Below, in pieces: positions 3,945 through 62,160 of a DNA stretch of 64,000 nucleotides. The DNA comes from Patescibacteria group bacterium (GTDB taxonomy: Bacteria > Patescibacteriota > Patescibacteriia > UBA9934 > GWF2-40-263). A model generated the notes under the pieces. The model ran no database searches. It was not told where the DNA came from and saw only the letters and a list, made by a program, of their open reading frames with translations. The stretch's first letter is position 1, and each line of letters begins with the position of its first letter. The stretch is taken from positions 186,471 to 250,470 of the forward strand of contig JBAZTR010000001.1 in NCBI GenBank assembly GCA_041661745.1, in the 5' to 3' direction. The position numbers and the translations under genes were made by a program.

Positions 3945-3975
3945 TTTTTGCCTACATACTACCTACTACTGGCCT
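3945..3975. repeat. family-1 heptad repeat, single copy upstream of the Cys-rich gene
   Basis: TTGCCTACATACTACCTACTACT. On the minus strand it reads ...GTAGTATGTAGGCAAAAAACATATG into the start codon. The 1812..2162 gene has the same start context. Confidence 0.65.
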
Positions 3976-3981
3976 ACCGGC

Positions 3982-5718
3982 CTAATTATTCTCTTCGAGA
4001 TACTTTAAATAACAGGATTGACAATAAATCTTACGGTTCGGATACTGAGGACATTTTGAGACCAAAACTTCTTTCTGACATTCGTAACACTGTTGTTTTT
4101 CTAGTGAACATATTTGTCCGCTGGCAGCCAAAGTATTAAGACGATGAATAAAATGTTCGGCTGGCGGAGCGATGCGTTTGGCCCGATAATAATCTAGTTC
4201 GGGTTTCAAAAAACTAAAAGTACGCTTAGCTTGTTCGTCATAAATCGGAACTCCTATCCAATCATCACCCAAGTCATCAATGGAATCAGGAATGTCTTTT
4301 AAACTTCTTGGTTCGTTTTTTAGACGTTCAGTGCCGGTTGCGCCTTCGGCATTAGGATCAAAAAACAAACCCCCGATCTTTTTTAGTTCTTCGTCAGTGG
4401 CTCCACAATAAATCGTGGCCCCGCCCTCGGGCACATAAGTCGAAGAAAGTTCCGGCGGTAAATAGTGTCCATACTCGCCACGTTCGAGCATAGCACACTT
4501 AAGTTCATCAAGGGTTTTCCAATATTCCTCTTCTTCGTACTGTTTATTTAAAATACAGAAACGCTTATTTTTCAAACCAATACAGCCAAAACAATCTCGA
4601 CAATCAGAAGACATGAGACAGTATTCGCAATTATCTAACCTGAAAGAACGATAACAAAATTTACTCTTGTTAGAATTTGGCGAGGAGACACACATGTAAA
4701 CCTCGGAATTATCGACCAGTCCCCAACCATAAGCGTTACCTTGATTATTACCGTATATCCAGGCGCTTCGCCAATTATCAACTGGATTATCACCGGAGGA
4801 AAAACATTCAGTACAACGAACAGCATTACTCAAATAATCGCCGGACGATTGCTCGGTTGAGACATTAAAATTTTCCGGCCAAATACCTTCGTTAAGCAAA
4901 AGCTCGTTAAATTTCTTTTGCCATTTTTCAACGACGCTTCTTTTGCCCAAATCAATTTCAGCTAAACGAGCCTCATATCCTTCTTTGGTCAGTTGTTTGT
5001 TAAAAAATAAGTATTCGGCGTTACGACGGTTAGTCGCACCAAAACAATTATTACAATTTCGACATTCAAACAAAAAGTTGGAATTTAAACAATCCAGCGA
5101 TTCGTGAACATAACGACAATTGTGGAGACGTTGGCTGTGAGTAATATGGTGTGAATCGGTGATGTTAAAAGCCAACCAGATCAACGAGGAATCGGCGATA
5201 CCAAAAGCCCCACCTGAAAAAAAAGATCTCTCCGACCTGCAGGCAAAAGTGAAATAACTGTCTTGGTCACCCATAGACATAAGCGCAATCGAATTTTTCG
5301 GCTCAACCCGATTAAAAGTCGCCAGAAGAGGCACGCGAAGTTCAAGTTTTCTTAATTGTTTAAAAAAGGGATCTGGAATTTCGAGGGTTTCAAAAATATT
5401 GGAAAAATCCTTGGTGTGCCACTCGACATCCGGCAAAACACGAATACCCGAAGCCGGATGATGAAAACTCAAGACCGGCTGACCGGTTTCAAAATGTTTG
5501 TTCCACCAAAACTGATAAGCACAATCATAATAAGCCATTTGTTTCCAAACAGTGTTAGGCGAAACATTGTGTGGTGGAACCATGAACTTTTTGTAAAGTT
5601 CGATTTCTTGAATCGGCATTTTCCATTTCTCGCCAGTCAAAACACAAGTCTGCTCGCCGGGGGTGAGTCCGTCGAGAATAACTTTTATTTTAGCGTCAAA
5701 ATTAGGAGTTTTACTCAT
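3982..5718 (-). CDS. large Cys-rich protein, tandem paralog of 2201..3940, with a C-terminal zinc ribbon
   Basis: The 578-aa product begins MSKTPNFDAKIKVILDGLTPGE, has C.NC.NCFG-type repeats and ends CYECQKEVLV...IYCQSCY. Confidence 0.6.
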   Translation of the reverse strand: MSKTPNFDAKIKVILDGLTPGEQTCVLTGEKWKMPIQEIELYKKFMVPPHNVSPNTVWKQMAYYDCAYQFWWNKHFETGQPVLSFHHPASGIRVLPDVEWHTKDFSNIFETLEIPDPFFKQLRKLELRVPLLATFNRVEPKNSIALMSMGDQDSYFTFACRSERSFFSGGAFGIADSSLIWLAFNITDSHHITHSQRLHNCRYVHESLDCLNSNFLFECRNCNNCFGATNRRNAEYLFFNKQLTKEGYEARLAEIDLGKRSVVEKWQKKFNELLLNEGIWPENFNVSTEQSSGDYLSNAVRCTECFSSGDNPVDNWRSAWIYGNNQGNAYGWGLVDNSEVYMCVSSPNSNKSKFCYRSFRLDNCEYCLMSSDCRDCFGCIGLKNKRFCILNKQYEEEEYWKTLDELKCAMLERGEYGHYLPPELSSTYVPEGGATIYCGATDEELKKIGGLFFDPNAEGATGTERLKNEPRSLKDIPDSIDDLGDDWIGVPIYDEQAKRTFSFLKPELDYYRAKRIAPPAEHFIHRLNTLAASGQICSLEKQQCYECQKEVLVSKCPQYPNRKIYCQSCYLKYLEENN

Positions 5719-15736: not shown

Positions 15737-18244
15737 TTAAGCTTTTTTCCTTCGACGAAACGCGAGTATAAATAAACTTGCAAAAGGCAACAGGAAAGAA
15801 ACCGGCAAGCCAGTACGCGGCAATTCATCAGTCGCCCCAAGAACCATTGGCTCCGGAGTAACAACGGCCGGATCAGCCACGACCTCGGCTTCGTCGGTTA
15901 CACCAAGAACCATTGGTTCTGGCGCAGTGACGGCCGGATCAGCTATATCTTCTTCGTCAGCTTCGTCGGTTACACCAAGGACTGTTGGTGTAGGGGTTGA
16001 GGAACCACTGGACGATGTTCCCCCATGACCGCCACCAGTGCCGATTTGGTGATCTTCGATCAGAATTGTAACTTCATAATTTTGATTGGCTGCCATAGTC
16101 ACCACACCAACATTATTACAATCACCACTTATGACAACACTATATCCATCTTCAGCCGAAGCCATAACCAAAGAATCGTCAATCACTGGTTCTTCTGAAC
16201 CTTCGTGACCGTCAAAAATTTCATAAATTTTATATTCGCCAGGAGAAAAATCAGTTTTTACATCTTGTGAAACCACGGTTTCCCCAGCGTATAAAGTGAA
16301 ATCGTAAGGTGTAAAATTATGTCCGTCGTTATTACTAATCTCAAGATGAACGGTTAAATGTCCGTTTCCATCAGAATCGTCACCCATAACATCTTCTAAA
16401 CCACCTGAATCAATTTCACCACCTGACTCGTCGCCACCCTCTCCACCCTCTCCACCCTCTCCACCCTCTCCACCCTCTCCACCCTCTCCAAAATCACCAT
16501 CAATACCACCGATTTCACCTTCAGAATCATCACCTGTTTCTTCTTCCTCTTCGGTTTCTTCGTCGCCACTCCCGTCATCTTCTATAATTTCATCATCACC
16601 CAATTCCTCATCTCCGGTTTCGTCGTCGCCTGTCTCGTCAACAATTTCATCACCGGATTCGTCGCCACCCTCTCCGCCCTCTCCAAAATCACCATCAATA
16701 CCACCGATTTCACCTCCAGAATCATCACCTGTTTCTTCTTCCTCTTCAGATTCATCATCGCCGGTTTCATCATCGACCTCTTCACCTGATTCGTCTTCGC
16801 CTTCACCGCCTTCGCCACCCTCTCCGCCCTCTCCAAAATCACCATCAATACCACCGATTTCACCTTCAGAATCATCACCTGTATCGCCGGTTTCTTCTTC
16901 TTGAGCAATATCATCGTTTATAATCGTACATTTTTTTTCATCACCAGGGCCAAGAGTAATCGAACCGTCGGCAGCACAATCACCATTAATTGTGGTTGTA
17001 TAAAGGCTTGATCCACCTTCAGAAACGGTATAAGTACCAAGAGCAAACTCGGTGGCCACATCATTGCTGACCGACACACCATCAACGAAAAGTGGAAAAT
17101 TTTCAGCAGTCATCGTTCCGCCATTGTCGTTGATAACTGTTTCAGTAACAGTTAATGTTGGCAAAATAGCACTATTTGTAAAACTACAAGTAGCATTAAC
17201 AGGTTCTGTCCCGGCTTCAACCGTGGTTTGGGCCGTCTCTCCATCGAATTCACAATTATCACCGCCCCAGGCAGTTAAAGAATAACCAGAAGGACCAGAT
17301 TCAACGATAGTATAAGTTCCGGCTGGGACATCTGTAATTATTACCGAGGACGAACCGTCTTCAATATCAAAAGTTGTTTGATCGTTAATGGCCGGCGAAA
17401 CAACAAATGACCATTCATCAGCCGAATCCGGCCCACTGGCCACAGTCTTCATTAAAGTTAAGGTTGGCAAAACTGTAGTTTCGTCTTCTTCAGCATCTAC
17501 TGGATTAATGGAAATTGTTTCTTTGGCAGTATCCAATTTGACACTCAAAGACGAACCAGGAAATTCGCTTGCTTCTGATCCAAGACGAGCACAAAGATAG
17601 ACATAAGCGGTTTGATTTCCTGGAATATCTTCAAGAGCAATATTGTAATATCTTTGTGCATCGGTTGATGTGGTTGAATCACCATCATCACTGGAAAATG
17701 GTCCGGTAACAACGGCCGAAACCGAACTCCCATCGCTAACCGGAAAAGTCATGGAAGAAAACGAGGTAGCCGGATATAAAAAATCACTCAAATCATCGGC
17801 ATCGTGTGGCGCGGTAAGCGAGGTGGAAATTCCTTCGAAATCTGTAATACCTAAATAGCCGCTTTTATAATAATCAAAAGAGAGACCAAATGTTACGTCA
17901 TCTGTTGAAGCGATTTTGTTCTCAACATCCACAAGAATAGGGACACAGGAGCCTTCGGGATAATTGGAAACATTTCCGTTATTAAAAGAACCGGATCCAC
18001 TTTGTCCAGAGCTAGAAATCGACACGGAGTCAGCATCAAAAACATACATGGATTCAGTTTTAACTGCCGCTCCGGCCAATGGAACAAGAAATGTTTGAGC
18101 GACAAGAAAGCACGAAAGGATGCAAAAGCTTAAAGAAGATTTTACAGAGGACGACCGAACTTTCGATATCCAAGATCGTCCTTTCTTAACCTTTTTCATA
18201 TCAAAAATATTAACTTTTTGATTAAAAATAATAATTTTCTCCAC
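15737..18244 (-). CDS. LPxTG-type cell-surface protein (LPRTG sorting signal) with acidic Gly/Glu low-complexity repeats
   Basis: The 835-aa product has an N-terminal signal/TM and a C-terminus ...ATDELPRTGLPVSFLLPFASLFILAFRRRKKA. The middle is GEGGEGGEG/DESGEE repeats. Confidence 0.75.
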   Translation of the reverse strand: MEKIIIFNQKVNIFDMKKVKKGRSWISKVRSSSVKSSLSFCILSCFLVAQTFLVPLAGAAVKTESMYVFDADSVSISSSGQSGSGSFNNGNVSNYPEGSCVPILVDVENKIASTDDVTFGLSFDYYKSGYLGITDFEGISTSLTAPHDADDLSDFLYPATSFSSMTFPVSDGSSVSAVVTGPFSSDDGDSTTSTDAQRYYNIALEDIPGNQTAYVYLCARLGSEASEFPGSSLSVKLDTAKETISINPVDAEEDETTVLPTLTLMKTVASGPDSADEWSFVVSPAINDQTTFDIEDGSSSVIITDVPAGTYTIVESGPSGYSLTAWGGDNCEFDGETAQTTVEAGTEPVNATCSFTNSAILPTLTVTETVINDNGGTMTAENFPLFVDGVSVSNDVATEFALGTYTVSEGGSSLYTTTINGDCAADGSITLGPGDEKKCTIINDDIAQEEETGDTGDDSEGEIGGIDGDFGEGGEGGEGGEGEDESGEEVDDETGDDESEEEEETGDDSGGEIGGIDGDFGEGGEGGDESGDEIVDETGDDETGDEELGDDEIIEDDGSGDEETEEEEETGDDSEGEIGGIDGDFGEGGEGGEGGEGGEGGEGGDESGGEIDSGGLEDVMGDDSDGNGHLTVHLEISNNDGHNFTPYDFTLYAGETVVSQDVKTDFSPGEYKIYEIFDGHEGSEEPVIDDSLVMASAEDGYSVVISGDCNNVGVVTMAANQNYEVTILIEDHQIGTGGGHGGTSSSGSSTPTPTVLGVTDEADEEDIADPAVTAPEPMVLGVTDEAEVVADPAVVTPEPMVLGATDELPRTGLPVSFLLPFASLFILAFRRRKKA
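16395..16905. repeat. tandem coding repeats (9-bp CCACCCTCT units and about 150-bp units x3) inside the LPRTG protein gene
   Basis: Visible direct repeats ccaccctctccaccctctcc... and three copies of ...tctccaaaatcaccatcaataccaccgatttcacc... Confidence 0.7.
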
Positions 18245-26079: not shown

Positions 26080-26617
26080 AACGCACCTATTATGGAGTTT
26101 TGTGAAGAAAAAAGCAAGAATCGTTTCTTTCCTCTTCCCCTCTATCCCCCTCTCCAGAGGAGAGGGGGAAGTTTCGCCCCGTGTCTCCGCTCCTCGGACA
26201 GCTAACCGCCTTCAGCGGCCTGGCTCGCTAACTCGCTGGCCAACTGCGCCGAGTAAGTGGCACTCACCCCTCGGCTTGTTGGCTGCACTCGAACAGAGGC
26301 TCGCCTTCCGACCTACGGAACCGGCCGCTTCAGCCGGGCTGTCCTCCGGGGCTCGACGCGGGGCGGTCTTTTTTGAAACACCTAACCCACCCTTTAGTTC
26401 GCGCATGAGACCGTTGTTAGTAAACACGAAAAGGTAGCCGATTGCTTTATCTTCTTGAAGTATCGTGCAAAGGCGATGTTTAAGAGAACCACCAAGAGGA
26501 GAAAAGAAAAGCTTGGGCGACGAACAAAGGGTGGTTTAAAAAAGCCCTTTCTTTTCCCACTTTTCTTTGGGCTAGCAAAGAAAAGTGGAAGAGGAAGAAG
26601 ATTAAAGAGAATCTAAA

Positions 26618-31115: not shown

Positions 31116-31964
31116 GAAAAAATTTTCGGCGTTCCTTGTGGTCATCTCTATTACCTCTTCCAAGCTTTTTCCGTGAAGCTCGGCCAACTTTCGTGCCACT
31201 TCGATGACATATCTCGGCTCATTGCGCTTGCCACGGTAAGGTGGCGGCGCCAAATACGGCGCATCGGTTTCAATTAAAACCTTTTCCAGTGGCACAGCTT
31301 TGGCCACCCGCTGTACATTCGAGAGTTCGCCTTCACTTTTTTTTGGTGGAAAGGTAACAATACCGGTAAAAGAAATCAAAAAACCAAGATTAAAATAATC
31401 ATTGGCTTGGTCCAAAGTGCCGGAAAAACAATGAACCACACCACGTCGGGACAGCTTCCCTGCCTCGACATATTCGCGTAAAAGAGCGACTTGCTCTTCG
31501 TGAGCATTGCGTGAATGAATAACCAACGGCAAATTTAATTCATCAGCCAAATCGAACTGGGCCCGCAACGCAGTCTTCTGTTTTTCTTTTACCTCGTCGA
31601 TGGAGATATCTTCCGGTAAATGATAAAAATCCAAACCGCATTCACCAATGGCTATAACTTTTTTACTTTTAGCGAGCTCACGATAAAAAGCCGGATCAAA
31701 TTCTTCGCTTCTGGTTTTAATTGTAGCTGTCGGGATTTCATCATCGTCCTCAAACGACTGCTTGGAAGTGTGCGAAGGATGTAAACCGATGGTAGCCCAA
31801 ACCCCATCGTATTTTTCGGCCACCTCCACCCCGCGGCGTGAGGTATCTTGTTGTGTTCCAACAGTAATCATAAAGACGTTCTCGGAAAGAGAACGTTTTA
31901 TAACTTCATCCATGTCTTCTTTGTAAGCGTTGAAATGGATGTGACAGTGGGTGTCGATCAACAT
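31095..31964 (-). CDS. TatD-family metal-dependent hydrolase
   Basis: MLIDTHCHIH at the N-terminus and later HCFSG/ETDAPYL motifs match TatD. The start was moved to MLIDTH. The upstream 14 codons of the ORF track lie inside the repeat element. Confidence 0.8.
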   Translation of the reverse strand: MLIDTHCHIHFNAYKEDMDEVIKRSLSENVFMITVGTQQDTSRRGVEVAEKYDGVWATIGLHPSHTSKQSFEDDDEIPTATIKTRSEEFDPAFYRELAKSKKVIAIGECGLDFYHLPEDISIDEVKEKQKTALRAQFDLADELNLPLVIHSRNAHEEQVALLREYVEAGKLSRRGVVHCFSGTLDQANDYFNLGFLISFTGIVTFPPKKSEGELSNVQRVAKAVPLEKVLIETDAPYLAPPPYRGKRNEPRYVIEVARKLAELHGKSLEEVIEMTTRNAENFFKIKITE

Positions 31965-31967
31965 AAA

Positions 31968-32462
31968 GCCCTCACCCCCTTTCCCCCTCCCCCGTATACA
32001 AAACAAAAGATTATACGAAGGAGGGGGAGTAAAACTATTTAATTAATTTTTTTATTTTTTCTAGAACTAAATTCAAATCTTCAAAAATTTCTTTATTAGT
32101 AAATCTAACCACCTTATACCCAAATCCTTCTAATCGTTCTGTTCTCTCGGCGTCGCCTTCTTTCGAAACGGTCTCGTTATGGATTTCGCCATCTATTTCT
32201 ATTATCAGTCTTTTAGTTCGACAGCAGAAATCGGCGATATAATTTTCGATTCCGTATTGCCTGGAAAATTTTATTCCGAGATTATTGTCTCGCAAGTGTT
32301 CCCATAAAATTTTTTCAGTCTCAGTTTGATTAACTCTAAGAAACTGTCGGGTATTTTTTTGTTTAACTTTATTAACCAAACATTTATTCCGCATAATTCT
32401 TTCCCCTCCTTCGTATGCTTATTGCCTTCCGGCATACGGGGGAGGGGTTAGGGGTGAGGGCC
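31968..32462. mobile_element. MITE-like cassette: DUF559 gene bounded by roughly 65-bp G-rich imperfect terminal inverted repeats
   Basis: The left end is GCCCTCACCCCCTTTCCCCCTCCCCCGTATAC...TATACGAAGGAGGGGGAG. The right end reverse-complements to GGCCCTCACCCCTAACCCCTCCCCCGTATGC...CATACGAAGGAGGGGA. The element exactly fills the tatD-cvpA spacer. Confidence 0.6.
32035..32394 (-). CDS. DUF559 (Vsr/restriction-endonuclease-like fold) protein
   Basis: The 119-aa product has ...ILW..LR.NNLGIKFSRQYGIENYIADFCCRTKRLIIEIDGEIH...R...L...GYKVVRF, typical of DUF559. It is paralogous to 35257..35640. Confidence 0.75.
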   Translation of the reverse strand: MRNKCLVNKVKQKNTRQFLRVNQTETEKILWEHLRDNNLGIKFSRQYGIENYIADFCCRTKRLIIEIDGEIHNETVSKEGDAERTERLEGFGYKVVRFTNKEIFEDLNLVLEKIKKLIK

Positions 32463-32948
32463 TTAAATCCAAGGAATCATCGTCTGGATCGCTGAAGTGA
32501 CAGAATTTATATAAGAAACAACTTGTGAACCGCTAAACCAACCACCGATCAAAGTTGGAAACATGAGTTGTGCAAAATAAACGGCCGCTCCCACCAAAAC
32601 CAAACCTTCAATCAAACCCAAAATTCCACCAAGTAATTTATTTACAAAACCAACAAACGGCAGCCAACGCAGAAAACCAAATAATCTGTCGACAATCCAA
32701 AAAACAAAACCAACCAAACGCTGAGTGACAATAAGAATAAGAATGAAAAGGACAATTCCGGCCACGGTTGTATTGTTGGCAAATAAGAAACCTAGATAAT
32801 CAATCGCTAGCCCGGTATATTGACTGGCAACGATTGCTCCAACAATAAGGCCGACCCCATTACCAAGGATTCGGATAAAACCGAACCACAAGCCGTAAAA
32901 GGCAAAGGCTCCGACAAGGACGAGAAGGATTATGTCGACAAGAGACAT
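32463..32948 (-). CDS. CvpA-family (colicin V production-like) membrane protein
   Basis: 161-aa product with four TM helices. The N-terminus DIILLVLVGAFAFYGLWFGFIR is typical of CvpA. Confidence 0.65.
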   Translation of the reverse strand: MSLVDIILLVLVGAFAFYGLWFGFIRILGNGVGLIVGAIVASQYTGLAIDYLGFLFANNTTVAGIVLFILILIVTQRLVGFVFWIVDRLFGFLRWLPFVGFVNKLLGGILGLIEGLVLVGAAVYFAQLMFPTLIGGWFSGSQVVSYINSVTSAIQTMIPWI

Positions 32949-32957
32949 ATTTTAGGC

Positions 32958-33035
32958 TCAAGTATGTAGTGGGTAGTATGTAGGCAAAAGTTCTAATTAG
33001 AACTCCTGCCTACCTACTACATACTACCTACTAAA
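32958..33035. repeat. family-1 heptad repeats as an inverted pair without cargo (about 75-nt hairpin) between cvpA and metG
   Basis: AGTATGTAGTGGGTAGTATGTAGGCAAAAG, then a palindromic spacer GTTCTAATTAGAAC, then CTCCTGCCTACCTACTACATACTACCTACT. Confidence 0.7.
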
Positions 33036-33037
33036 AG

Positions 33038-34546
33038 CTAATTATTTTTAGGAAAAAGCGGCTCGCCTTTGGCGATTTTGTGGCCCGGAGTCAGTTCACC
33101 CCACACCCAAGCTGATTCAAACGATTGATTAAATTCTTTCGGGGCTTCAAGACCGAGTTGAACAAAAAGTTTCTCGGCTGTCTCGGGCATAAATGGAACC
33201 AACATCCAAGCAATGTGGCGCAGGGTTTCGAGCAAAACGTAAAGGGTGTCGTTCAACATTTTCTTTTCCTCCATTTTGGCCAACTGCCACGGTTGTTGTT
33301 GCTCAACAAATTGATTGGCTTGACGAATCAAATTCCAAATAATATCCAAGGCATCACTCAAACGATTTTCTTCAAGAGCTAAATGGTAGGCTTGCCATGC
33401 CCCGGCAAGAAACCCGTCAGCTTTTTCCGGAACAACACCGTCGGTGTATTTCTCAGTCATGGCCAGAACGCGATTTACCAAGTTGCCAAATTCGTTGGCT
33501 AACTCGTTATCATAACGGGCCACCAAACGGCTTTCCGAAAAATCACCATCCCCACCAAACGGAATTTCACGAAAAAGAAAATAACGAAGGACGTCGTTGC
33601 CGTATTTTTGGGTCATTTCAATTGGGTCAACAACATTACCAATGGACTTAGACATTTTTTGTCCATCAATAGTGAAAAAACCATGAGCAAAAACCTGCTT
33701 GGGCAATGGTAAACCGGCTGACATTAACATGGCCGGCCACAAGGCACAGTGAAATTTAATAATATCTTTACCAACCAAATGCAAATCAACCGGCCACCAT
33801 TTTTCAAAAGCCGTCGGATCATCAGCATAACCCACGCCGGAAAGATAATTGATCAGGGCATCGAACCAAACGTAAATGCGATGTTTTTCATCGCCAGGCA
33901 CGGAAATGCCCCACTCCACGGTTTCGCGAGAAATGGAAATATCCGTCATGAAGTTACGAATATAACTCAAGACTTCGTTCCGTTTGGCCTCGGGCTGAAT
34001 AAAATCAGGATGTTCACCAATGTAAGCCAACAAATCATCACGATATTTTGTTAAACGGAAAAAATAATTATTTTCTTTCAGAGCTGTTGGAGCTTTTTGA
34101 TGATCGGGACACAAACCGTTAACCAAATCAGTTTCATTTTTAAAAGCCTCACAGCCTTGGCAATACAAACCTTCATAAGAACCAAGATAAATATCACCTT
34201 TGGCTTCGACGGCTTTCCAAAACTTTTCCACGGACTGGTGATGAACTTTTTCCGTGGTGCGGATAAAACGATTATGCGTTAAACCCAACGAATCAAAAGT
34301 TCGCTCCCACAACGCCGCCATTTCGTCCAAATAACCTTGAACATCGGCGGCGCGACCAACCTTGGCCGCGGCCTCAACGTTTTTTTGGCTGTTTTCATCA
34401 GTGCCGGTTTGAAACATTACTTCCTCGCCCAGCATGCGGTGATAACGGGCCAAAATATCCGCGGCAATTGCCGTGTAAGCGTGGCCAATCGACGGCTTAC
34501 CGTTGATGTAATAAATCGGGGTGGTTATGTAAAACTTTTTGGGCAT
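33038..34546 (-). CDS. metG: methionine--tRNA ligase
   Basis: The 502-aa product has the HIGH motif PSIGHAYT, KMSKS, and the zinc knuckle CPDH...CQGC. Confidence 0.95.
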   Translation of the reverse strand: MPKKFYITTPIYYINGKPSIGHAYTAIAADILARYHRMLGEEVMFQTGTDENSQKNVEAAAKVGRAADVQGYLDEMAALWERTFDSLGLTHNRFIRTTEKVHHQSVEKFWKAVEAKGDIYLGSYEGLYCQGCEAFKNETDLVNGLCPDHQKAPTALKENNYFFRLTKYRDDLLAYIGEHPDFIQPEAKRNEVLSYIRNFMTDISISRETVEWGISVPGDEKHRIYVWFDALINYLSGVGYADDPTAFEKWWPVDLHLVGKDIIKFHCALWPAMLMSAGLPLPKQVFAHGFFTIDGQKMSKSIGNVVDPIEMTQKYGNDVLRYFLFREIPFGGDGDFSESRLVARYDNELANEFGNLVNRVLAMTEKYTDGVVPEKADGFLAGAWQAYHLALEENRLSDALDIIWNLIRQANQFVEQQQPWQLAKMEEKKMLNDTLYVLLETLRHIAWMLVPFMPETAEKLFVQLGLEAPKEFNQSFESAWVWGELTPGHKIAKGEPLFPKNN

Positions 34547-35205
34547 ACGACAATTACAAATTCGCCTTTTATACTACCTTCTTTTAATCGTTTTGTCACC
34601 TCGGAGGATGTGCCGCGATAAATGGTTTCGTGAAGTTTAGTCAGCTCGCGACCGACAACCAGTTTTCGCTCGCCGATAAGGTCCCCAAGTTCTTCCAAAG
34701 TTTTTAAGATGCGGTGCGTTGATTCGTAAAAACAAACGGTTTCTTCGGTCGCGGCGATTTTGGCAAAATACGCTTTGCGACCATTTTTGTGTGGTGGAAA
34801 GCCAAGAAACAAAAATTTGTCGGCCGGCCAACCGGAAATCGACAAAGCAGCAATGGCCGCGCACGCTCCCGGAATCGGAATAATTTGCAGTTCATCGCCT
34901 AAAGCTTTAATAGCGGCTTCAACAAACTTACCACCCGGATCAGAAATCGCCGGTGTGCCGGCATCAGTCGTTAAAGCCAACGACTTCCCTTCCTTCAACA
35001 TTTTTAATGCCTCGGCAATTCTTGCTTCGCTGGCATGTTGATTAATGGCAATCATGGGCTTTTTAATTCCCAAATGTTGGAGAATTTTTCCAGTCACCCG
35101 AGTGTCTTCACAGACAATCGCATCAACGGTTCCAAGGGTCTCGGCCGCACGGGTCGTTAAATCGGATAAGTTTCCAATTGGCGTGGCGACGATAAATAGT
35201 TTCAT
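34525..35205 (-). CDS. rsmI: 16S rRNA (cytidine1402-2'-O)-methyltransferase RsmI
   Basis: The 226-aa product has the tetrapyrrole-methylase-fold N-terminus LFIVATPIGNLSDLT...VDAIVCEDTR typical of RsmI. Confidence 0.85.
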   Translation of the reverse strand: MKLFIVATPIGNLSDLTTRAAETLGTVDAIVCEDTRVTGKILQHLGIKKPMIAINQHASEARIAEALKMLKEGKSLALTTDAGTPAISDPGGKFVEAAIKALGDELQIIPIPGACAAIAALSISGWPADKFLFLGFPPHKNGRKAYFAKIAATEETVCFYESTHRILKTLEELGDLIGERKLVVGRELTKLHETIYRGTSSEVTKRLKEGSIKGEFVIVVCPKSFT

Positions 35206-35725
35206 AGATTCCCTCTCCCCTTACCCTCCCCCGTCGTGGCAACGAGGGAGGGAGAATTATTTAAGATAAGTTTTAATTTTAATTAAAATTTTCTGCGGAT
35301 CTTCCAATACTTCTTGGTTTTTAAACCTAATAATCTTGTAGCCAAGTCTTTCTAAATTTTCTGTTCTCTCTCGATCACTTACTTTTGCTTCATAGCAATT
35401 GTGGATGTCTCCGTCTATCTCAATGATTAACTTCTTACTCCGGCAACAGAAATCGGCTATATAATTTTCTATTCCGTGCTGCCTAACAAATCTTATTCCA
35501 AGTTCGTTTCTTCGCAAATGTTGCCATAATACTGTTTCGGCATCAGTTTGGTTTTTCCGTAAAAACTGTCTGGTTACTTTTTGTTTTAGTTTATTGACTA
35601 AATGTTTTTCGAACATAACAAATAGTTCTTCCTCCCTCACTGCCGCAGTGGGGGAGGATTACCCGCCTTCGCCAAGGCTACGGCGGGTCCTCCGTAGCTT
35701 TAGCGAAGGAGGAGAGGAGAGGGCC
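35206..35725. mobile_element. second MITE-like DUF559 cassette with G-rich terminal inverted repeats
   Basis: The left end CCCTCTCCCCTTACCCTCCCCCGTCGTGGCAACGAGGGAGGGAG and the right end ...GGGGGAGG...GAAGGAGGAGAGGAGAGGGCC match the ends of the 31968-32462 element. It exactly fills the rsmI-DUF3179 spacer. Confidence 0.55.
35257..35640 (-). CDS. DUF559 (Vsr-like endonuclease fold) protein, second copy
   Basis: The 127-aa product has ...VLWQHLRRNELGIRFVRQHGIENYIADFCCRSKKLIIEIDGDIH...LGYKIIRF. Confidence 0.75.
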   Translation of the reverse strand: MREEELFVMFEKHLVNKLKQKVTRQFLRKNQTDAETVLWQHLRRNELGIRFVRQHGIENYIADFCCRSKKLIIEIDGDIHNCYEAKVSDRERTENLERLGYKIIRFKNQEVLEDPQKILIKIKTYLK

Positions 35726-36610
35726 TCAATGATTAGCCGCCCAACAAAACCAATAAGCCGTGGTCAGGGCCACTTCGTTTTCGTTCTTGTCATATCCTTT
35801 CACAGTTTCCAATTCCTCATCCCAAACAAAATCAACTTCCGTGCCACTAATAGTTTTGGCACTTTTAATATTATCTAGCGGAAAAACCTCCGAACCGTAA
35901 CTGTAGACAATGGTTTTGGCCGGATAACTCGAATCGTATTTATTCAACGGATACCAAACCGCCGGCGTGGCTGCGTAATTGCCGTATGGATTATGCGAAT
36001 AATCGCGAGCTGAACCGGTTTCGCGCGACAACACATAACCATTGGGAAAATTTTCTTTGAACGATTGCCAGGTCATGACATAAGAAGGAATGGCCGAAAG
36101 GTTATCGCCGGTCTCGGGAAGAGTTTGACCGTCAAACGAACGCCAAAGTAAATCTGTTTCTTCGGCCGTAAACAACATGGAGTTGTTATAAATTTTTCCG
36201 GAATTTTTAAAAAGCCTTTCGCTTTCGAAAACGGCCGCACTGCCACACAACGGATCATAAGAAACTAAAATCGACGAACCGTTCCAAACATCATTAACCA
36301 AATTGTGCCAAACCAAAATCTGAAAAGGATAAAACCTCGCCTGTCCCCTGCCCCCTATCCCCTCCAAAACAAGACCAAGCCCTTCATTTAACAAATAAGT
36401 GTCGGCCAACGGAACTGATTCGAAATCAGAATCATTAAGAGCAGGACGCGAGTCGTTGTCTGAACCTGTATCTATTATCGAATCTTCCAATCCTGGCTGA
36501 ACCAGATTTCGTGGCGGCAAGTGATTAAAATACTCAAAAACAAAAAAGCCGACAAAAATCGCTAAAATAACAAAAATGATCAATTTTCTCTTGTTTAAGA
36601 ATTCCTTCAC
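35726..36610 (-). CDS. hypothetical protein (DUF3179-like?), N-terminal TM
   Basis: 294-aa product. The family assignment is by vague recollection only. An internal G-tract encodes GIGGRGQARF. Confidence 0.4.
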   Translation of the reverse strand: MKEFLNKRKLIIFVILAIFVGFFVFEYFNHLPPRNLVQPGLEDSIIDTGSDNDSRPALNDSDFESVPLADTYLLNEGLGLVLEGIGGRGQARFYPFQILVWHNLVNDVWNGSSILVSYDPLCGSAAVFESERLFKNSGKIYNNSMLFTAEETDLLWRSFDGQTLPETGDNLSAIPSYVMTWQSFKENFPNGYVLSRETGSARDYSHNPYGNYAATPAVWYPLNKYDSSYPAKTIVYSYGSEVFPLDNIKSAKTISGTEVDFVWDEELETVKGYDKNENEVALTTAYWFCWAANH

Positions 36611-36617
36611 ACAAAAA

Positions 36618-36671
36618 TAGAATATCAGAAAAAAATAATACCGGCCACCTGGGGTTGAACCAGATGGCCGG
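36618..36671 (-). terminator. rho-independent terminator of the high-GC IPT/TIG gene
   Basis: On the minus strand CCGGCCATCTGGTTCAACCCCAGGTGGCCGG forms a hairpin, followed by TATTATTTTTTTTCT. Confidence 0.65.
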
Positions 36672-36680
36672 AGAGGTGCC

Positions 36681-37757
36681 CTAGCGGTGGCCGGGGGCGG
36701 CGACGATCCCGTTGATCGGAGCGGGCGGAGCGAGTCCCTCCTCGATCGAGTTGGCCACCATAGTAAGTCTGCCGGCGATCAAGGCAGCAGCCAGGAGGAT
36801 CGCCAGGACCACGCTCCCGATGACCGCCGGAACCACCCACGGCTTCATGGGGGCCGGCGGGACGGCCGGGGCAGGAGGCTCGGGCGGCGGGGGCGGCTTG
36901 GCCATGTGCGGCGTCAGCTGGTCGACCACCTCCTTAACGGCCTTGCCGACCATCTCGCCATTCCGGATCATCAGGTCGCCGACGATCTTCGGATCAACGC
37001 CGGGCGGGATCGCGATGACCGGAGCGGCGACTCGCGAGGCCGAGCCCGCGGGCGGGGTCGAGCTGCGCGGAGGAGGCGACGGCGGCGGGGCGGCGACCTT
37101 GGTCTTGAACGTGAAGGCGTCCGCCAGGAAGACGGACTCGCCACCGTTGTTCTTGACCTCGACGCTCGCCACTCCGACCGGGAAGGCGGGAGTCTTGGCC
37201 AGGATCTTGGTGTCGGACACGAACCGGATGTCCGTGCCGACGACCTTGGTCGCGGGCGTGAAGAAGAACACCTGGCAGTCGGCCGTGAAGCCGCTGCCGG
37301 TCACCTCGACCTCGAGGCCACCAGTCTCCTCGCCCTCGGTGGGCGTGATGGAGGTGACGGCGAGAACGGGAGGCGGTGGGGGCGGAGGCGGCGGTGGGCT
37401 GCTGATCGCGACGACCCAGCCGACCGCTCGGGCGTGGGCGAGCGCCCGATCCTTGAAGTCGGGCCGCCAGTCCCGGATGGCCTCGAGCTCGGTCATGATC
37501 TCGGCCTCGGAGCGGTTGGCCGAAGCCACGACCAGCTCCTCGACCTTGCAGATGATGTCGATGACCGTGGTGTCATCGTTGCCCAGCGCGGCCGCTTTCG
37601 TGAACTTGTCCGCGACATCGACCGAGACGTTGTCCCACTCGGTGAACTTCCAGGCCATGAGCGAGCTGAAGTCGCCGGCCGGGCTGGGGGCAGACCAGAT
37701 GGCCACGGCCGCATGGAACGCGGCCTGCTGTTCTGGGGTGAGGGTAGTGATGTCCAT
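36681..37757 (-). CDS. high-GC surface-type protein with an IPT/TIG-like Ig domain, poly-Pro linkers and a C-terminal TM anchor
   Basis: The 358-aa product has PPPPPPPPPP; an Ig-like segment VTSITPTEGEETGGLEVEVTGSGF...VFFF...IRFVSDTKILAKTP...VEVKNNGG..SV..D.FTF; and a C-terminal hydrophobic stretch AVIGSVVLAILLAAALIAG. GGAGA lies before the ATG. The long + strand ORFs here are Arg-rich antisense artefacts. Confidence 0.6.
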   Translation of the reverse strand: MDITTLTPEQQAAFHAAVAIWSAPSPAGDFSSLMAWKFTEWDNVSVDVADKFTKAAALGNDDTTVIDIICKVEELVVASANRSEAEIMTELEAIRDWRPDFKDRALAHARAVGWVVAISSPPPPPPPPPPVLAVTSITPTEGEETGGLEVEVTGSGFTADCQVFFFTPATKVVGTDIRFVSDTKILAKTPAFPVGVASVEVKNNGGESVFLADAFTFKTKVAAPPPSPPPRSSTPPAGSASRVAAPVIAIPPGVDPKIVGDLMIRNGEMVGKAVKEVVDQLTPHMAKPPPPPEPPAPAVPPAPMKPWVVPAVIGSVVLAILLAAALIAGRLTMVANSIEEGLAPPAPINGIVAAPGHR

Positions 37758-37908
37758 GGTATCTCCGGGGTCAGGGAGGGTGGGAGAAGGTGCATCAAAC
37801 AGCCGAAAAACCGGCCGAATGAACAGAGAAAAATATCACATTTTCCAAAAAAAGTCAAGAATCTTATCAAAAACAAAAATTTATCAAAAAAAGAATTTCC
37901 TTCTAATC

Positions 37909-37938
37909 TTGACAAAAACCAAAAAATGGGCTATTTTA
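37909..37938 (+). promoter_or_regulatory. sigma70-like promoter (TTGACA, 17 nt spacer, TATTTT) in the AT-rich divergent spacer, driving the 38065 gene
   Basis: cTTGACAaaaaccaaaaaatgggcTATTTTact. A strong SD GGGAGGA lies 6 nt before the ATG at 38065. Confidence 0.45.
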
Positions 37939-38064
37939 CTTAGCTCGAATTGAGCACAAGGTAGTTAGCTCCCTAAACAATTCACCCAATTCGTTCGTAA
38001 GTTTTTTTGTCGTAATTCTTCGCCAGAACGCTGAACACACCCGAACCCCGAAAGGGAGGACAAA

Positions 38065-39222
38065 ATGAGCGAGATCAACATCCTGGATCTCTGGGCAGCA
38101 ACCGGCATCATGGAGGCGCTCCTGCCCCTGATCCGAGAGGTCGACAAAAGGTTCGTCCCCGAGGACCACAACCTGACCTACAACCAGGTCGAGTGGAGCC
38201 GTCACGGCGACGGATGCATCGGAAGCATCATGCTCGTCGACGAGGACGGCAAGGATCAGGAGATCGCCTGCTACCCGATCTCGACCAGGTGGAACGTGGA
38301 CATCACCACCCCCCACATGGTACTGGCCTTCCAGGTCACCAGAAGCAACAACGAACCCGAAACCGAGGACGACCTGAGCGACGGTCGCTGGTACGCCATT
38401 CCGGTCGGTCTGGCACCAACCTCGATCCGGACCAAAGTCGAGAGGGCCTTCCAGGAAGTCGGCCTCCTCAACGGTCGTCTCCCCGGCCTCAAGCCGCACG
38501 AGTGGGACGACTCTCCGGAACGCCGGTTCAACCTGGTCTTCCAGCGCCGGCGCGGCGACATGATCGCCTGGTACCAGGGGAAGGTCTGCGTCCTGGTCGA
38601 AGGTTCGCCAATCCCCAAGCCCGGCAAGGAGGTCATCTGCGAAGTGGTGACCGAGCGCCTGAGCAAGGTCGTCGTCCGCTGGACGGGCATGACCGTCGAG
38701 CAGGCCAGGAAGAGGATCGACGAACAGCGACGCCTGGCCGGTCTCCGAAGCAGCATCCGCCGGGCCGCGCGCGTGGAGCGACCCGAGCTCAAGGATCCCG
38801 TGGCCGCCATGGGGCTCGAGCCGGACAAGCTGAGCGGCGGACGCCTCAACAGCGCCTACCGCCGGCTGCGCCAGCAGGTCCCGACGACCGAGGAGGAGGC
38901 CGGCGCCAACCCGCTGGCCAAGGCCATGGTCGAAGTCGGCCTGCCCTTCCAGGCCGACAACCTAGACTGGCCGGTGTTCTACGCCGAGTACCTCGACCGG
39001 GCCGACCGGGCCGCGGTCCAGGTCCTCAAGGACAAGCGCACGAAGGAGCGCGAGGAGGCCGAACGCACGGCCACCCCGCCGCCCGTCGAGCCCGCCACCG
39101 AAGGCGAGGGCCACGAGGAAGCGGTCGCCGACCTCGACACCGCCGACGAAGACCTCCTGGTCGAGGAGTCGACCGACGACGGCTCCGCCCAGCCCCGCGA
39201 GGAGGGCGCGAACGCGAAGTAG
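38065..39222 (+). CDS. high-GC hypothetical protein (385 aa, acidic C-terminal tail)
   Basis: A long ORF with a strong RBS and its own promoter and terminator. No motif recognised. The C-terminus is Glu/Asp-rich. Confidence 0.55.
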   Translation: MSEINILDLWAATGIMEALLPLIREVDKRFVPEDHNLTYNQVEWSRHGDGCIGSIMLVDEDGKDQEIACYPISTRWNVDITTPHMVLAFQVTRSNNEPETEDDLSDGRWYAIPVGLAPTSIRTKVERAFQEVGLLNGRLPGLKPHEWDDSPERRFNLVFQRRRGDMIAWYQGKVCVLVEGSPIPKPGKEVICEVVTERLSKVVVRWTGMTVEQARKRIDEQRRLAGLRSSIRRAARVERPELKDPVAAMGLEPDKLSGGRLNSAYRRLRQQVPTTEEEAGANPLAKAMVEVGLPFQADNLDWPVFYAEYLDRADRAAVQVLKDKRTKEREEAERTATPPPVEPATEGEGHEEAVADLDTADEDLLVEESTDDGSAQPREEGANAK

Positions 39223-39254
39223 ACGGACTTCCCCGTCAACTTCACGTCCCACAC

Positions 39255-39293
39255 GGCCGCTGTGCACCTAGTGCATGGCGGCCTTTTTCTTTT
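39255..39293 (+). terminator. rho-independent terminator (GGCCGC..GCGGCC hairpin plus TTTTTCTTTT)
   Basis: A GC hairpin lies 33 nt after the 39222 stop, followed by a T-run. Confidence 0.6.
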
Positions 39294-39363
39294 ACAAAAA
39301 TTTATGACTATCGACCGTGACTGTGGTATAATATTTAAAACAAAAGAAAATAAAAAAACTTTT

Positions 39364-40143
39364 ATGTCTATTTATCCAAATTGGAAAGGCGAAAGAGTGT
39401 ACGCTATCGCCGTTTTCGTACTCATTGTGAGCGCGATTATTTATCTCGGCGTAAAAATTGACAACATTGTCCGACAATCAAAAGAAGTCGGTCAACCCAC
39501 GCCCTATGAACATACAATCATGATTGAAGGCGAAGGCACGGTTACTGGTAAGCCAGATATTGCCACTTTTGTCATGGGCACGGAAAGCCATGGGGTCGAT
39601 GCGGCCGCGGCACAAACCGCCAATAGCACCATCATGAATAAAATTATTGAAGATACTAAGGGCTTAGGAATTTCTGAAGACGATATTCAAACTTCCGGCT
39701 ACAATATTTACGAAGATCTTCAATGGAATTCGGACACTGGTGATTATGATTCAAAAGGATGGATCGTTTCCAACTATGTCACGGTTAAAGTCCGCGATGT
39801 TTCCAAACTTTCAACCGTCTTAGCTATGGCCGGTCAAAATGGCATTACTGATATTTCCGGTCCAACTTTCACAATTGATGACACCACTAATTTAAAGGCC
39901 GAGGCCAGAACCGAAGCTATTCAACAAGCGCAAACCAAAGCGCAAGCTATTGCCACAGCCCTTGGTATGAGAATTGAAAAAGTTGTTGGTTACAGCGAAT
40001 GGTCCCCTTCGATTTATGACTACTCATATGCTTATGGTATGGGTGGGTCAGACGAAAAATTAAGTTCAGCCATGCCATCTATCGAGGCCGGTTCAACCGA
40101 AGTTTCACTAACCGTTTCCATCACTTACAAATTGGCCGAATAA
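39364..40143 (+). CDS. SIMPL/DUF541 domain protein (26 kDa periplasmic immunogenic protein-like)
   Basis: The product has an N-terminal TM, then IEGEGTVTGKPDIATF...GWIVSNYVTVKV...GPTF.IDD....AR.EAI..A..KA in the SIMPL pattern. The start was moved to MSIYPNW. The ORF track's earlier start lies in the high-GC terminator. Confidence 0.65.
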   Translation: MSIYPNWKGERVYAIAVFVLIVSAIIYLGVKIDNIVRQSKEVGQPTPYEHTIMIEGEGTVTGKPDIATFVMGTESHGVDAAAAQTANSTIMNKIIEDTKGLGISEDDIQTSGYNIYEDLQWNSDTGDYDSKGWIVSNYVTVKVRDVSKLSTVLAMAGQNGITDISGPTFTIDDTTNLKAEARTEAIQQAQTKAQAIATALGMRIEKVVGYSEWSPSIYDYSYAYGMGGSDEKLSSAMPSIEAGSTEVSLTVSITYKLAE

Positions 40144-62050: not shown

Positions 62051-62160
62051 TAGTATCTCCCCCTATCCCCCTCTTTAGCAAAGAGGGGGCAAAACTATTT
62101 CTCCCTCCCTTTACTAAAGGGAGGGGTGGGGAGAGATTTTAAATTAACACACAAATCCCC
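62051..62160. repeat. pair of G/C-rich hairpins (CCCCCTC-TTTAGCAAAG-AGGGGG; CTCCCTCCC-TTTACTAAAG-GGAGGGG) of the family-3 type
   Basis: They have the same CCCCTC/GAGGGG flavour as the DUF559-element TIRs and the hairpin at 26137-26175. Confidence 0.55.

Follow-up and report, generated by a model that had tools for sequence, protein, structure and literature searches.

One class of dispersed intergenic repeat in Escherichia coli, described in the 1990s, carries three names: BoxC, PIT element (potential intrastrand triplex), and TM_ECO (a triplex motif, TM) (PMC4666352). It follows the pattern CCCTCNCCC N3-6 GGGNGAGGG N3 GGGNGAGGG (PMC4666352), and E. coli K-12 holds 23 copies, five inverted doublets included (Holder et al. 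2015, PMC4666352). The motif folds into an intrastrand triplex in vitro, as shown for the E. coli sequence only, and has been linked to local genome rearrangement; its function was unknown to the authors, who state that a mobility or processing gene had never been found near the repeats (PMC4666352). Table S2 of the same work places motif 9 between fabI and ycjD, without comment (PMC4666352). The gene ycjD, between sapF and fabI, is the E. coli member of DUF559, a large orphan protein family. Here, we describe two DUF559 genes, each enclosed by an inverted pair of repeats of BoxC/PIT/TM type, in 64,000 nt of the genome of a Candidatus Uhrbacteria-like Patescibacteria group bacterium (contig JBAZTR010000001.1, positions 186,471 to 250,470; this whole stretch is called the window, and its numbering is used throughout).

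Two other kinds of element share parts of this organization. In the repetitive extragenic palindromic (REP)/REPIN system with its RAYT gene (TnpA_REP), as here, a single small nuclease-type gene lies inside an inverted pair of genome-dispersed hairpin repeats and inverted doublets without an open reading frame (ORF) occur; a long, vertically inherited residence appears to be shared as well. The two differ in their enzyme, an HUH Y1 transposase versus a hydrolytic PD-(D/E)XK (Vsr-clan) nuclease here, in their repeats, GTAG-headed REPs versus G/C-tract triplex-type repeats here, and in gene number, with several gene copies per genome here. The likeness is one of analogy. Free-standing homing endonucleases, such as those of the seg and mob genes of phage T4, are likewise encoded by small genes between intact conserved genes, which some relatives have and others lack. 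One homing endonuclease, I-Bth0305I (3R3P), has a catalytic domain related to DUF559 in sequence and fold. Unlike homing endonucleases, DUF559 genes occupy no intron or intein, are chromosomal, and are nearly absent from phages; the protein lacks the extra DNA-binding domain of I-Bth0305I, and structured repeats enclose its gene, although homing has no need of them.

We read the two cassettes of the window, with a probability of roughly 0.5, as copies of a nuclease-plus-repeat element in which a DUF559 gene sits inside an inverted BoxC/PIT/TM-type pair. The best reading of this element is that it would be long-resident and analogous to REP–RAYT or to a free-standing homing endonuclease.

Two DUF559 genes between inverted repeats

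Both genes lie on the minus strand, each occupying one intergenic gap and bounded by imperfect inverted repeats of about 50–110 nt. Gene 1 (32035–32394) and gene 2 (35257–35616, from its ATG) each encode 119 aa and match Pfam DUF559 (PF04480), of the Vsr/PD-(D/E)XK nuclease clan, with E-values of 8e-34 and 4e-33 and scores of 116 and 114 bits against a gathering cut-off of 20.6. The proteins are 64% identical over 119 aa, which bears out the original prediction, made from the sequence of this stretch, of paralogues about 60% identical. That prediction had gene 2 run from 35257 to 35640, and the ORF listing begins it at the GTG at 35640; its start is likely to be the ATG at 35616 instead, because the resulting length of 119 aa is that of every homologue and the GTG falls within the 5' hairpin of unit 2. 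The minus-strand order is DUF3179, gene 2, rsmI–metG–cvpA, gene 1, tatD. Pfam confirms the five neighbours TatD, CvpA (Colicin_V), methionyl-tRNA synthetase (MetRS), RsmI (TP_methylase), and DUF3179, all of them intact, in keeping with the earlier view that the units fill intergenic gaps without damaging adjacent genes. The window holds no additional DUF559 copy or fragment, and no DNA methyltransferase gene stands beside the units, whose neighbours are tatD and cvpA at one site and rsmI and DUF3179 at the other.

The DUF559 protein is a predicted nuclease that, by profile and model comparison, has the Vsr-clan PD-(D/E)XK fold. A profile of 22 homologues matches, in the PDB, 3HRL (DUF559) with an E-value of 2e-31 and the catalytic domain of I-Bth0305I (3R3P) with 8e-6. 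For an AlphaFold model of protein 1 (predicted local distance difference test score, pLDDT, 82), the top Foldseek matches are again 3HRL (9e-7) and 3R3P (1e-4), with 1VSR/1CW0 at a probability of 0.99–1.0; PvuRts1I/AbaSI and Vsr stand lower in the match list. D55, E66, D68, and H72 are invariant across the 22 sequences. The protein is not Vsr proper, the T:G mismatch repair partner of Dcm, because Pfam gives DUF559 and MTES_1575 rather than Vsr and no DNA methyltransferase is linked to it; as a PD-(D/E)XK nuclease, it is not an HUH Y1 transposase either. The family comprises 21,724 clusters at 50% identity (E ≤ 1e-3). It appears in 12 of 50,697 phage records and 38 of 72,556 plasmid records, and this near absence makes a phage-type homing lifestyle unlikely. 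PADLOC returned just marginal domain-level matches, and DUF559 does not belong to any known defence system.

Each repeat end has the same architecture: a C-tract arm and a G-tract arm form a hairpin around a loop, and beyond it lies a third block, a mirror G-tract. Unit 1 (31965–32462, minus strand) has inverted repeats at 31964–31997 and 32434–32465 and hairpins at 31982–32028 and 32403–32447. Its 5' repeat (32395–32462, minus strand; strict detector match, as defined below, 32403–32458; folding z-score −3.3) reads on the gene strand as the C-tail GCCCTCACCCC, TAA, and hairpin A (CCCCTCCCCCGTATGC, a 13-nt loop, GCATACGAAGGAGGGG), whose G arm contains a Shine–Dalgarno-like AAGGAGG 9 nt ahead of the DUF559 ATG. 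Its 3' repeat (31965–32034, minus strand; detector match 31971–32027; z −4.2) follows the stop codon with hairpin B (CCCCCTCCTTCGTATA, loop, TATACGGGGGAGGGGG), AAA, and the G-tail GGGGGTGAGGGC, which ends 3 nt before the tatD ATG. Unit 2 (35206–35725, minus strand) has arms at 35225–35262 and 35620–35657 and outer arms at 35202–35221 and 35713–35732. Its 5' end (35617–35725, minus strand; z −4.9) comprises the C-tail GCCCTCTCC (35713–35725), an inserted nested palindrome of 24-bp stem (CCGCCTTCGCCAAGGCTACGGCGG / CCTCCGTAGCTTTAGCGAAGGAGG; 35663–35712), TAA, and hairpin A (35630–35658, TCCTCCCCCACTGC-G-GCAGTGAGGGAGGA). Its 3' repeat (35206–35256, minus strand; detector match 35211–35253) consists of hairpin B (CTCCCTCCCTCGTTG-CCA-CGACGGGGGAGGG), TAA, and the G-tail GGGGAGAGGG, which ends 5 nt before the rsmI ATG. 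Folded as single strands of DNA, the hairpins of the ends are more stable than shuffles (z −2.4 to −4.9), and repeat search and folding agree with the predicted imperfect inverted repeats with internal hairpins. A scan of the whole window at Rfam gathering thresholds gave two tRNAs only and no match at the repeats. The four G-tracts of the repeat also fit a G-quadruplex motif, which is indistinguishable here from the published triplex model.

The units are co-oriented with their operon, and in four of five units, those of other genomes described below included, the G-tail ends 2–5 nt before the next start codon; in the unit between pheS and pheT the distance is 26 nt. Insertion leaves both neighbours intact because the unit is co-oriented and its G-tail stops just before the next start. 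The G-tail may be the ribosome-binding site of the downstream gene (the 16S rRNA lies outside the window), so that the cassette appears to carry ribosome-binding sequences for both its own gene and the next one.

Repeats were sought across the window with a home-made three-block detector (8-nt blocks, at most one hairpin mismatch, at most two mirror mismatches), whose thresholds were picked after the window had been seen. In the 64 kb, it finds five sites and no others: unit 1 has one at each end, unit 2 has one at its 3' end, and a doublet near 62 kb has one in each half. A looser scan for clusters of C/G motifs adds just a site at 26136 and the weaker end of unit 2. The doublet (62051–62135, minus strand; z −4.8) is complete, inverted, and ORF-less, lies in the 5' leader of uvrB, and consists of two hairpins with outer C and G tails and the spacer AAATAGTTTTG. 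This spacer is identical at 11 of 12 positions to the last codon of unit 1, its stop codon, and TTTT (AAATAGTTTTAC); the remnant kept within the doublet is AAATAGTTTT. Because of the match to the last codon and stop, the doublet looks like a unit whose ORF was lost or never received. A single, slightly degenerate repeat upstream of secA (26136–26170, minus strand), CCCCCTCTCC-TCT-GGAGAGGGGG-AT-AGAGGGGAAG, falls under the strict threshold. Cargo-less hairpins had been predicted at both places, and both stand, except that 62136–62160 is not part of the repeat.

Judged by their sequence, the window repeats are relatives of the BoxC/PIT/TM class and not the E. coli family itself. They show the C-arm, G-arm, and mirror G-block of that class and follow the same plan of C-arm, loop, G-arm, short loop, and mirror G-tail. 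Their blocks are alike (GGG(G)AGGGG-TTA-GGGGTGAGGG in the window, GGGNGAGGG-TTA-GGGNGAGGG in TM_ECO), the block/loop sequence CCCTCACCC(C)-TAA-CCC(C)TC is common to the window bacterium, E. coli, and Sinorhizobium meliloti, and both kinds are intergenic and occur as single copies and as inverted doublets. The unit between pheS and pheT even carries the 'type B' CCG loop published for TM_ECO. By contrast, none of the window copies, read by eye from their sequences and not by running the regular expression on the window, fits the strict TM_ECO pattern: blocks differ, and loop 1 is longer (5–13 nt plus an extra stem versus 3–6 nt). The strict pattern fits 5 of 81 motifs in metagenomic DUF559 loci. 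Moreover, the window pair frames a gene, whereas the published work on BoxC/PIT/TM_ECO reports no associated gene or mobility function. The original prediction had taken the ends for terminal inverted repeats (TIRs) specific to the element; this part did not hold, as they belong to a widespread class that is also found alone (23 copies in K-12; PMC4666352).

The gene–repeat pairing in other bacteria

Comparison among genomes showed that the pairing of gene and repeat holds across phyla. The metagenomic set consisted of the best 80 of 581 relatives (37–56% identical) with 1.5-kb flanks. A flank-to-flank (upstream–downstream) inverted repeat with z > 5 was found in 28 of 67 loci with usable flanks, and a strict motif lies within 200 nt of 34 of the 82 metagenomic DUF559 genes, on both sides in 17. 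Counted per kb of non-ORF DNA, strict motifs number 9.75 at 0–100 nt from DUF559, 1.94 at 100–200 nt, 1.46 at 200–400 nt, 1.97 at 400–800 nt, and 0.16 at 800–1600 nt, against 0.19 in 557 kb of MetRS control loci; triplex-type repeats are concentrated about 50–60-fold beside DUF559. The original prediction would have been overturned by ends that were ordinary palindromes found equally around unrelated genes, and this came out half true: the ends are not private to the element, but they are strongly concentrated beside this one gene family. The flanking motifs are nearly always mutually inverted. A fixed polarity relative to the gene was rejected, with tails outward in six loci and inward in nine, and tandem motif arrays adjoin some genes (L086, L107). 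Flanking repeats were present in all six named taxa (Picosynechococcus PCC 7002, Synechocystis, Neisseria gonorrhoeae with the 3HRL type, Deinococcus, S. meliloti, and Sphingomonas); in S. meliloti, the repeat is nearly the E. coli sequence. Two Microcoleus loci share gene and both repeats at 94% nucleotide identity, in a common block that reaches about 115 nt past the upstream repeat, and an extra 5'-truncated gene copy there retains the 3' repeat. No other recurrent cargo was found in about 190 kb of DUF559 loci or in the 557 kb of control loci. In the literature searched, which excluded subscription-only papers, we found no paper linking a DUF559 gene with BoxC/triplex repeats, and no biochemical data for stand-alone DUF559 proteins. 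Both components were already known; the pairing joins two old unknowns, the BoxC/PIT/TM repeats and the DUF559 family.

E. coli K-12 holds both gene and repeats, and the link is open to test in this model organism. YcjD and N. gonorrhoeae NGO0050 (3HRL) belong to the same family as the window proteins (PRK09767, E 2e-18; 3HRL, E 2e-31), have the same size, and likewise have triplex-type repeats next to the gene; the window proteins are about 40% identical to members of this type and miss the NCBIfam equivalog cut-off (67 versus 218 bits). Where the window has a tidy inverted pair, E. coli ycjD has one repeat and remnants. A canonical TM_ECO, CCCTCGCCCCTCTGGGGAGAGGGTTAGGGTGAGGGG, lies 167 nt downstream of ycjD; it is identical to TM_ECO #22 of Table S8 (PMC4666352) and is also recovered by the strict detector. 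Between the two (K-12 positions 1351250–1351400; locus L161, 4250–4400), a 5'-truncated duplicate of the last 50 nt or so of ycjD is followed by a partial repeat (AAAGGGTTAGGGGCTG).

The gene ycjD occurs in 3378 of 5426 complete E. coli genomes. With a composite query (ycjD plus TM_ECO) on an evenly spaced sample of 60 genomes, 11–27 places matched in the 37 genomes with ycjD and 1–14 in the 23 without; published TM_ECO counts range from 1 to 30 copies per strain (PMC4666352). One genome with two ycjD places is explained by IS1 disruption. Sorted by the phylogroups to which we take the strains of the published counts to belong, TM_ECO copies number 1–2 in B2, 6–7 in F, 10–11 in E, 12–15 in D, 13–24 in A, and 26–30 in B1. 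The gene itself is reported from phylogroups A, B1, and C, plus sequence types ST69 and ST182, with eefRABCD at the site elsewhere (PMC12817139). These published figures agree with the sample of 60 genomes. The correlation supports the link only weakly because the trend follows phylogeny and lineages without ycjD keep 10–14 places.

Closer to the window bacterium, a MetRS scan found six Uhrbacteria (L004–L009; MetRS 70–76% identical) syntenic from DUF3179 through rsmI, metG, and cvpA to tatD. DUF559 is at neither site in any of the six (0/6); their cvpA|tatD gaps measure 27–130 nt, and the DUF3179|rsmI gaps 29–283 nt in the five that reach DUF3179 (L005–L009). By contrast, L074 (MetRS 83%), the nearest of the relatives retrieved, does carry DUF559 in its cvpA|tatD gap, bounded by the same ends as in the window. 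That gene is 71% identical to gene 1 (nonsynonymous divergence, dN, 0.19; synonymous divergence, dS, 1.14; dN/dS 0.17), and the hairpin-A stems are identical between the two whereas the loop has diverged. From the dN/dS of 0.17, the identical stems, and the diverged loop, we judge that DUF559 protein and repeat stems are under purifying selection and that the insertion is old. A direct reading of unit 2 against hairpin B of L164 also shows a compensatory G-C to A-T change (CGTTG..CGACG versus CATTG..CAATG). Related units fill other gaps, each in the orientation of the gene that follows: in L075–L080 the unit lies between pheS and pheT, in L166 it precedes ruvA, and in L165 it precedes a gene for a putative secreted protein. 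The L165 G-tail is separated from the downstream start by 4 nt; in L166, the ORF extends across the 3' repeat and overlaps the ruvA start. Taken together, these comparisons showed repeats and gene to be gained or lost as one block at intergenic sites. Empty sites, which the original prediction proposed to look for, were thus found in the six relatives, and presence/absence at a conserved site between intact genes holds at the depth of a genus or family. Within the species, no polymorphism was found, unit 1 being present in three of three other samples.

Several observations in these relatives stand on their own. In one sample, two different DUF559 units (L164, about 100–290; L165, about 2280–2470) share one structured insert, about 150 nt long (CCCCTTCGAGAGGCC...GTCGAAGGG), in the loop of hairpin A, as if another small element had nested within the unit. 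In L074, metG is bracketed by inverted C-tract/G-tract runs ending in ATCGAGCTTCC / GGAAGCTCGAT (190–245, 1755–1800, 1900–1945) and CCCTTTCCCCTTTCCCCTATCCCC precedes cvpA, so that G/C-tract elements frame housekeeping genes there too. L009 has solo triplex-type repeats (3160–3195, 3957–3992) in the DUF3179|rsmI gap, where the window has unit 2, and 8 nt before the metG ATG; neither site holds DUF559. Small genes of PF05635 ('23S rRNA intervening sequence protein') lie near DUF559 units in L074 (1–183) and L164 (1781–2158).

Weighing a proposed nuclease–repeat partnership

A mechanism for such an element can be proposed. The DUF559 nuclease would recognize repeats of its own type in folded or mismatched form and cut them, and the break would be repaired by copying from a gene-carrying repeat pair, in a homing-like conversion seeded at the 3' repeat. 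Through such copying, the gene would spread or be maintained among the repeat pairs, and 5'-truncated or ORF-less doublets would be left behind, the 5'-truncated remnants arising, under this proposal, because copying is seeded at the 3' repeat. We give repeat cutting by the nuclease and copying of the gene between repeat pairs about even odds. A narrower idea, that Uhrbacteria hairpins with T.G or C.A mismatches suit a Vsr-type enzyme, was rejected as a general reading; it is weakened because most metagenomic copies have perfect stems and E. coli copies have G.A. The two window copies are probably old residents, nearer to a domesticated REP–RAYT-like partnership, long-term and largely vertical, than to an active burst of miniature inverted-repeat transposable elements (MITEs). 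The small mobile element of the original prediction survives in part: an insertable block, empty sites in relatives, units in other gaps, and ORF-less copies speak for it, but a clear target-site duplication is missing. Similarly, the family of the suggested homing-type nuclease does include a proven homing endonuclease, I-Bth0305I. The MITE label and self-mobilization nevertheless stay conjectural, because the copies are old, no duplication is clear, and the species shows no polymorphism.

More tentatively, and with somewhat less than even chances, DUF559 proteins, YcjD included, might be the missing partner enzymes of BoxC/PIT/triplex-motif repeats throughout Bacteria. Were this so, a symbiosis like that of REP and RAYT would exist in which a Vsr-fold nuclease reads G/C-tract DNA in its folded form, and the genomic instability reported at triplex repeats would be accounted for. 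The window would also show a nuclease cassette living inside the operons of a minimal candidate-phyla genome.

A number of points weigh against the nuclease-plus-repeat element. Neither cleavage nor mobility has been shown anywhere for DUF559 with its repeats, and a hydrolytic PD-(D/E)XK nuclease alone cannot join DNA, which leaves the arrival of repeats at new sites unexplained. The repeats of the two window units are unlike one another and unlike the ORF-less copies, and the 64 kb holds no near-identical copies of the element (the two genes being only 64% identical); the copies are anciently diverged, and recent copying leaves no sign in the window. No convincing target-site duplication was found at either unit: the unit borders show just imperfect direct repeats, of which the best is a 7/9 match at unit 2 (TCATAGATT / TCAATGATT), with 5/7 at unit 1, and the empty sites of relatives have diverged too far for exact junctions to be placed. 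The pair has no constant polarity with respect to the gene. Most E. coli repeats lie far from ycjD, lineages without the gene retain their 10–14 places, two genomes with a divergent ycjD allele have just 11–13 places, and the trend between gene and repeat number tracks the phylogroup tree, amounting to one or two independent contrasts. Finally, the inverted repeats of unit 1 predict a 55-bp RNA duplex around the ORF, so that selection might act at the RNA level.

This last point is the core of an explanation that we consider unlikely. The inverted repeats would act in the transcript, as a long duplex or as local hairpins hiding Shine–Dalgarno sites; RNase III would excise the nuclease cistron, or its translation would be throttled, with the host operon insulated, and the real job of DUF559 (repair or defence) would be unrelated to the repeats. 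Unit 1 RNA indeed folds with a terminal duplex of about 55 bp (z −8.4), the AAGGAGG of the DUF559 gene is inside hairpin A, the G-tail abuts the next start codon, and the sense-strand hairpin mismatches differ by side, C.A at the 5' and U.G wobble at the 3'. The solo repeat just before metG in L009 and the inverted runs around metG in L074 point the same way. An RNA-level role would, however, leave the conserved third mirror block unexplained, as purine-motif triplexes do not form in RNA, and earlier work found the E. coli elements without promoter or terminator activity (PMC4666352). It also fails to explain the ORF-less doublets, solo copies, and 5'-truncated gene remnants, the tandem arrays beside DUF559 in L086 and L107, and the recurrent choice of this one family as cargo. 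Slightly less probable still is a passive association, in which triplex repeats are independent selfish or structural recombination hot spots and DUF559 mobilizes nothing, being a host repair nuclease for repeat damage or a gene often captured between repeats. Among strains of E. coli, rearrangement is unusually common at TM loci (PMC4666352), E. coli repeats far outnumber DUF559 genes and persist without ycjD, L009 keeps solo repeats at orthologous intergenic sites without DUF559, and the family's scarcity in phages and plasmids also fits. Yet every phylum examined has the gene framed by an inverted pair within 100 nt, for which a trans-acting repair enzyme has no need, the block comes and goes together with its repeats, and the surveyed DUF559 and control loci yielded no other recurrent cargo.

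A classical cut-and-paste TIR transposon, with DUF559 as transposase and the ORF-less doublets as true MITEs moved in trans, seems improbable, even though terminal inverted repeats around a single small ORF, ORF-less derivatives, and units in many different intergenic sites are what it would produce. TnsA is an example of a restriction-fold nuclease that can take part in transposition. Such a transposon is hard to reconcile with the failure to find a clear target-site duplication or, in the window, near-identical copies, with a 119-aa hydrolytic nuclease lacking a strand-transfer domain, with a repeat polarity that varies, and with a common block in Microcoleus that runs some 115 nt beyond the upstream repeat. 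As for coincidence, intergenic hairpins are common, and ordinary GC-rich terminator hairpins might flank two paralogous genes by chance; this is very improbable indeed, given that the motif is confined to the reported loci in the 64 kb and that its block/loop sequence recurs in the window bacterium, E. coli, and S. meliloti, and the enrichment of about 50–60-fold beside DUF559 across unrelated loci already contradicts chance.

Other features of the window

The gap between cvpA and metG is filled by a 90-nt palindrome (32952–33041) of two abutting 45-nt arms that are 78% complementary; its sequence is unrelated to the G/C-tract repeats. Directly after the solo repeat upstream of secA, 26175–26300 is a GC-rich stretch without an Rfam match. 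A block at 36600–39500 has 61–64% GC against about 45% for the genome and contains a proline-rich TIG-domain ORF (36681–37757, minus strand) as well as very long antisense ORFs; it is possibly foreign or hypervariable DNA. Lastly, 15737–18244 encodes an 835-aa LPRTG-anchored surface protein with long acidic GEGGEGG repeats, and this gene accounts for the GC skew of −0.45 at 16–17 kb.

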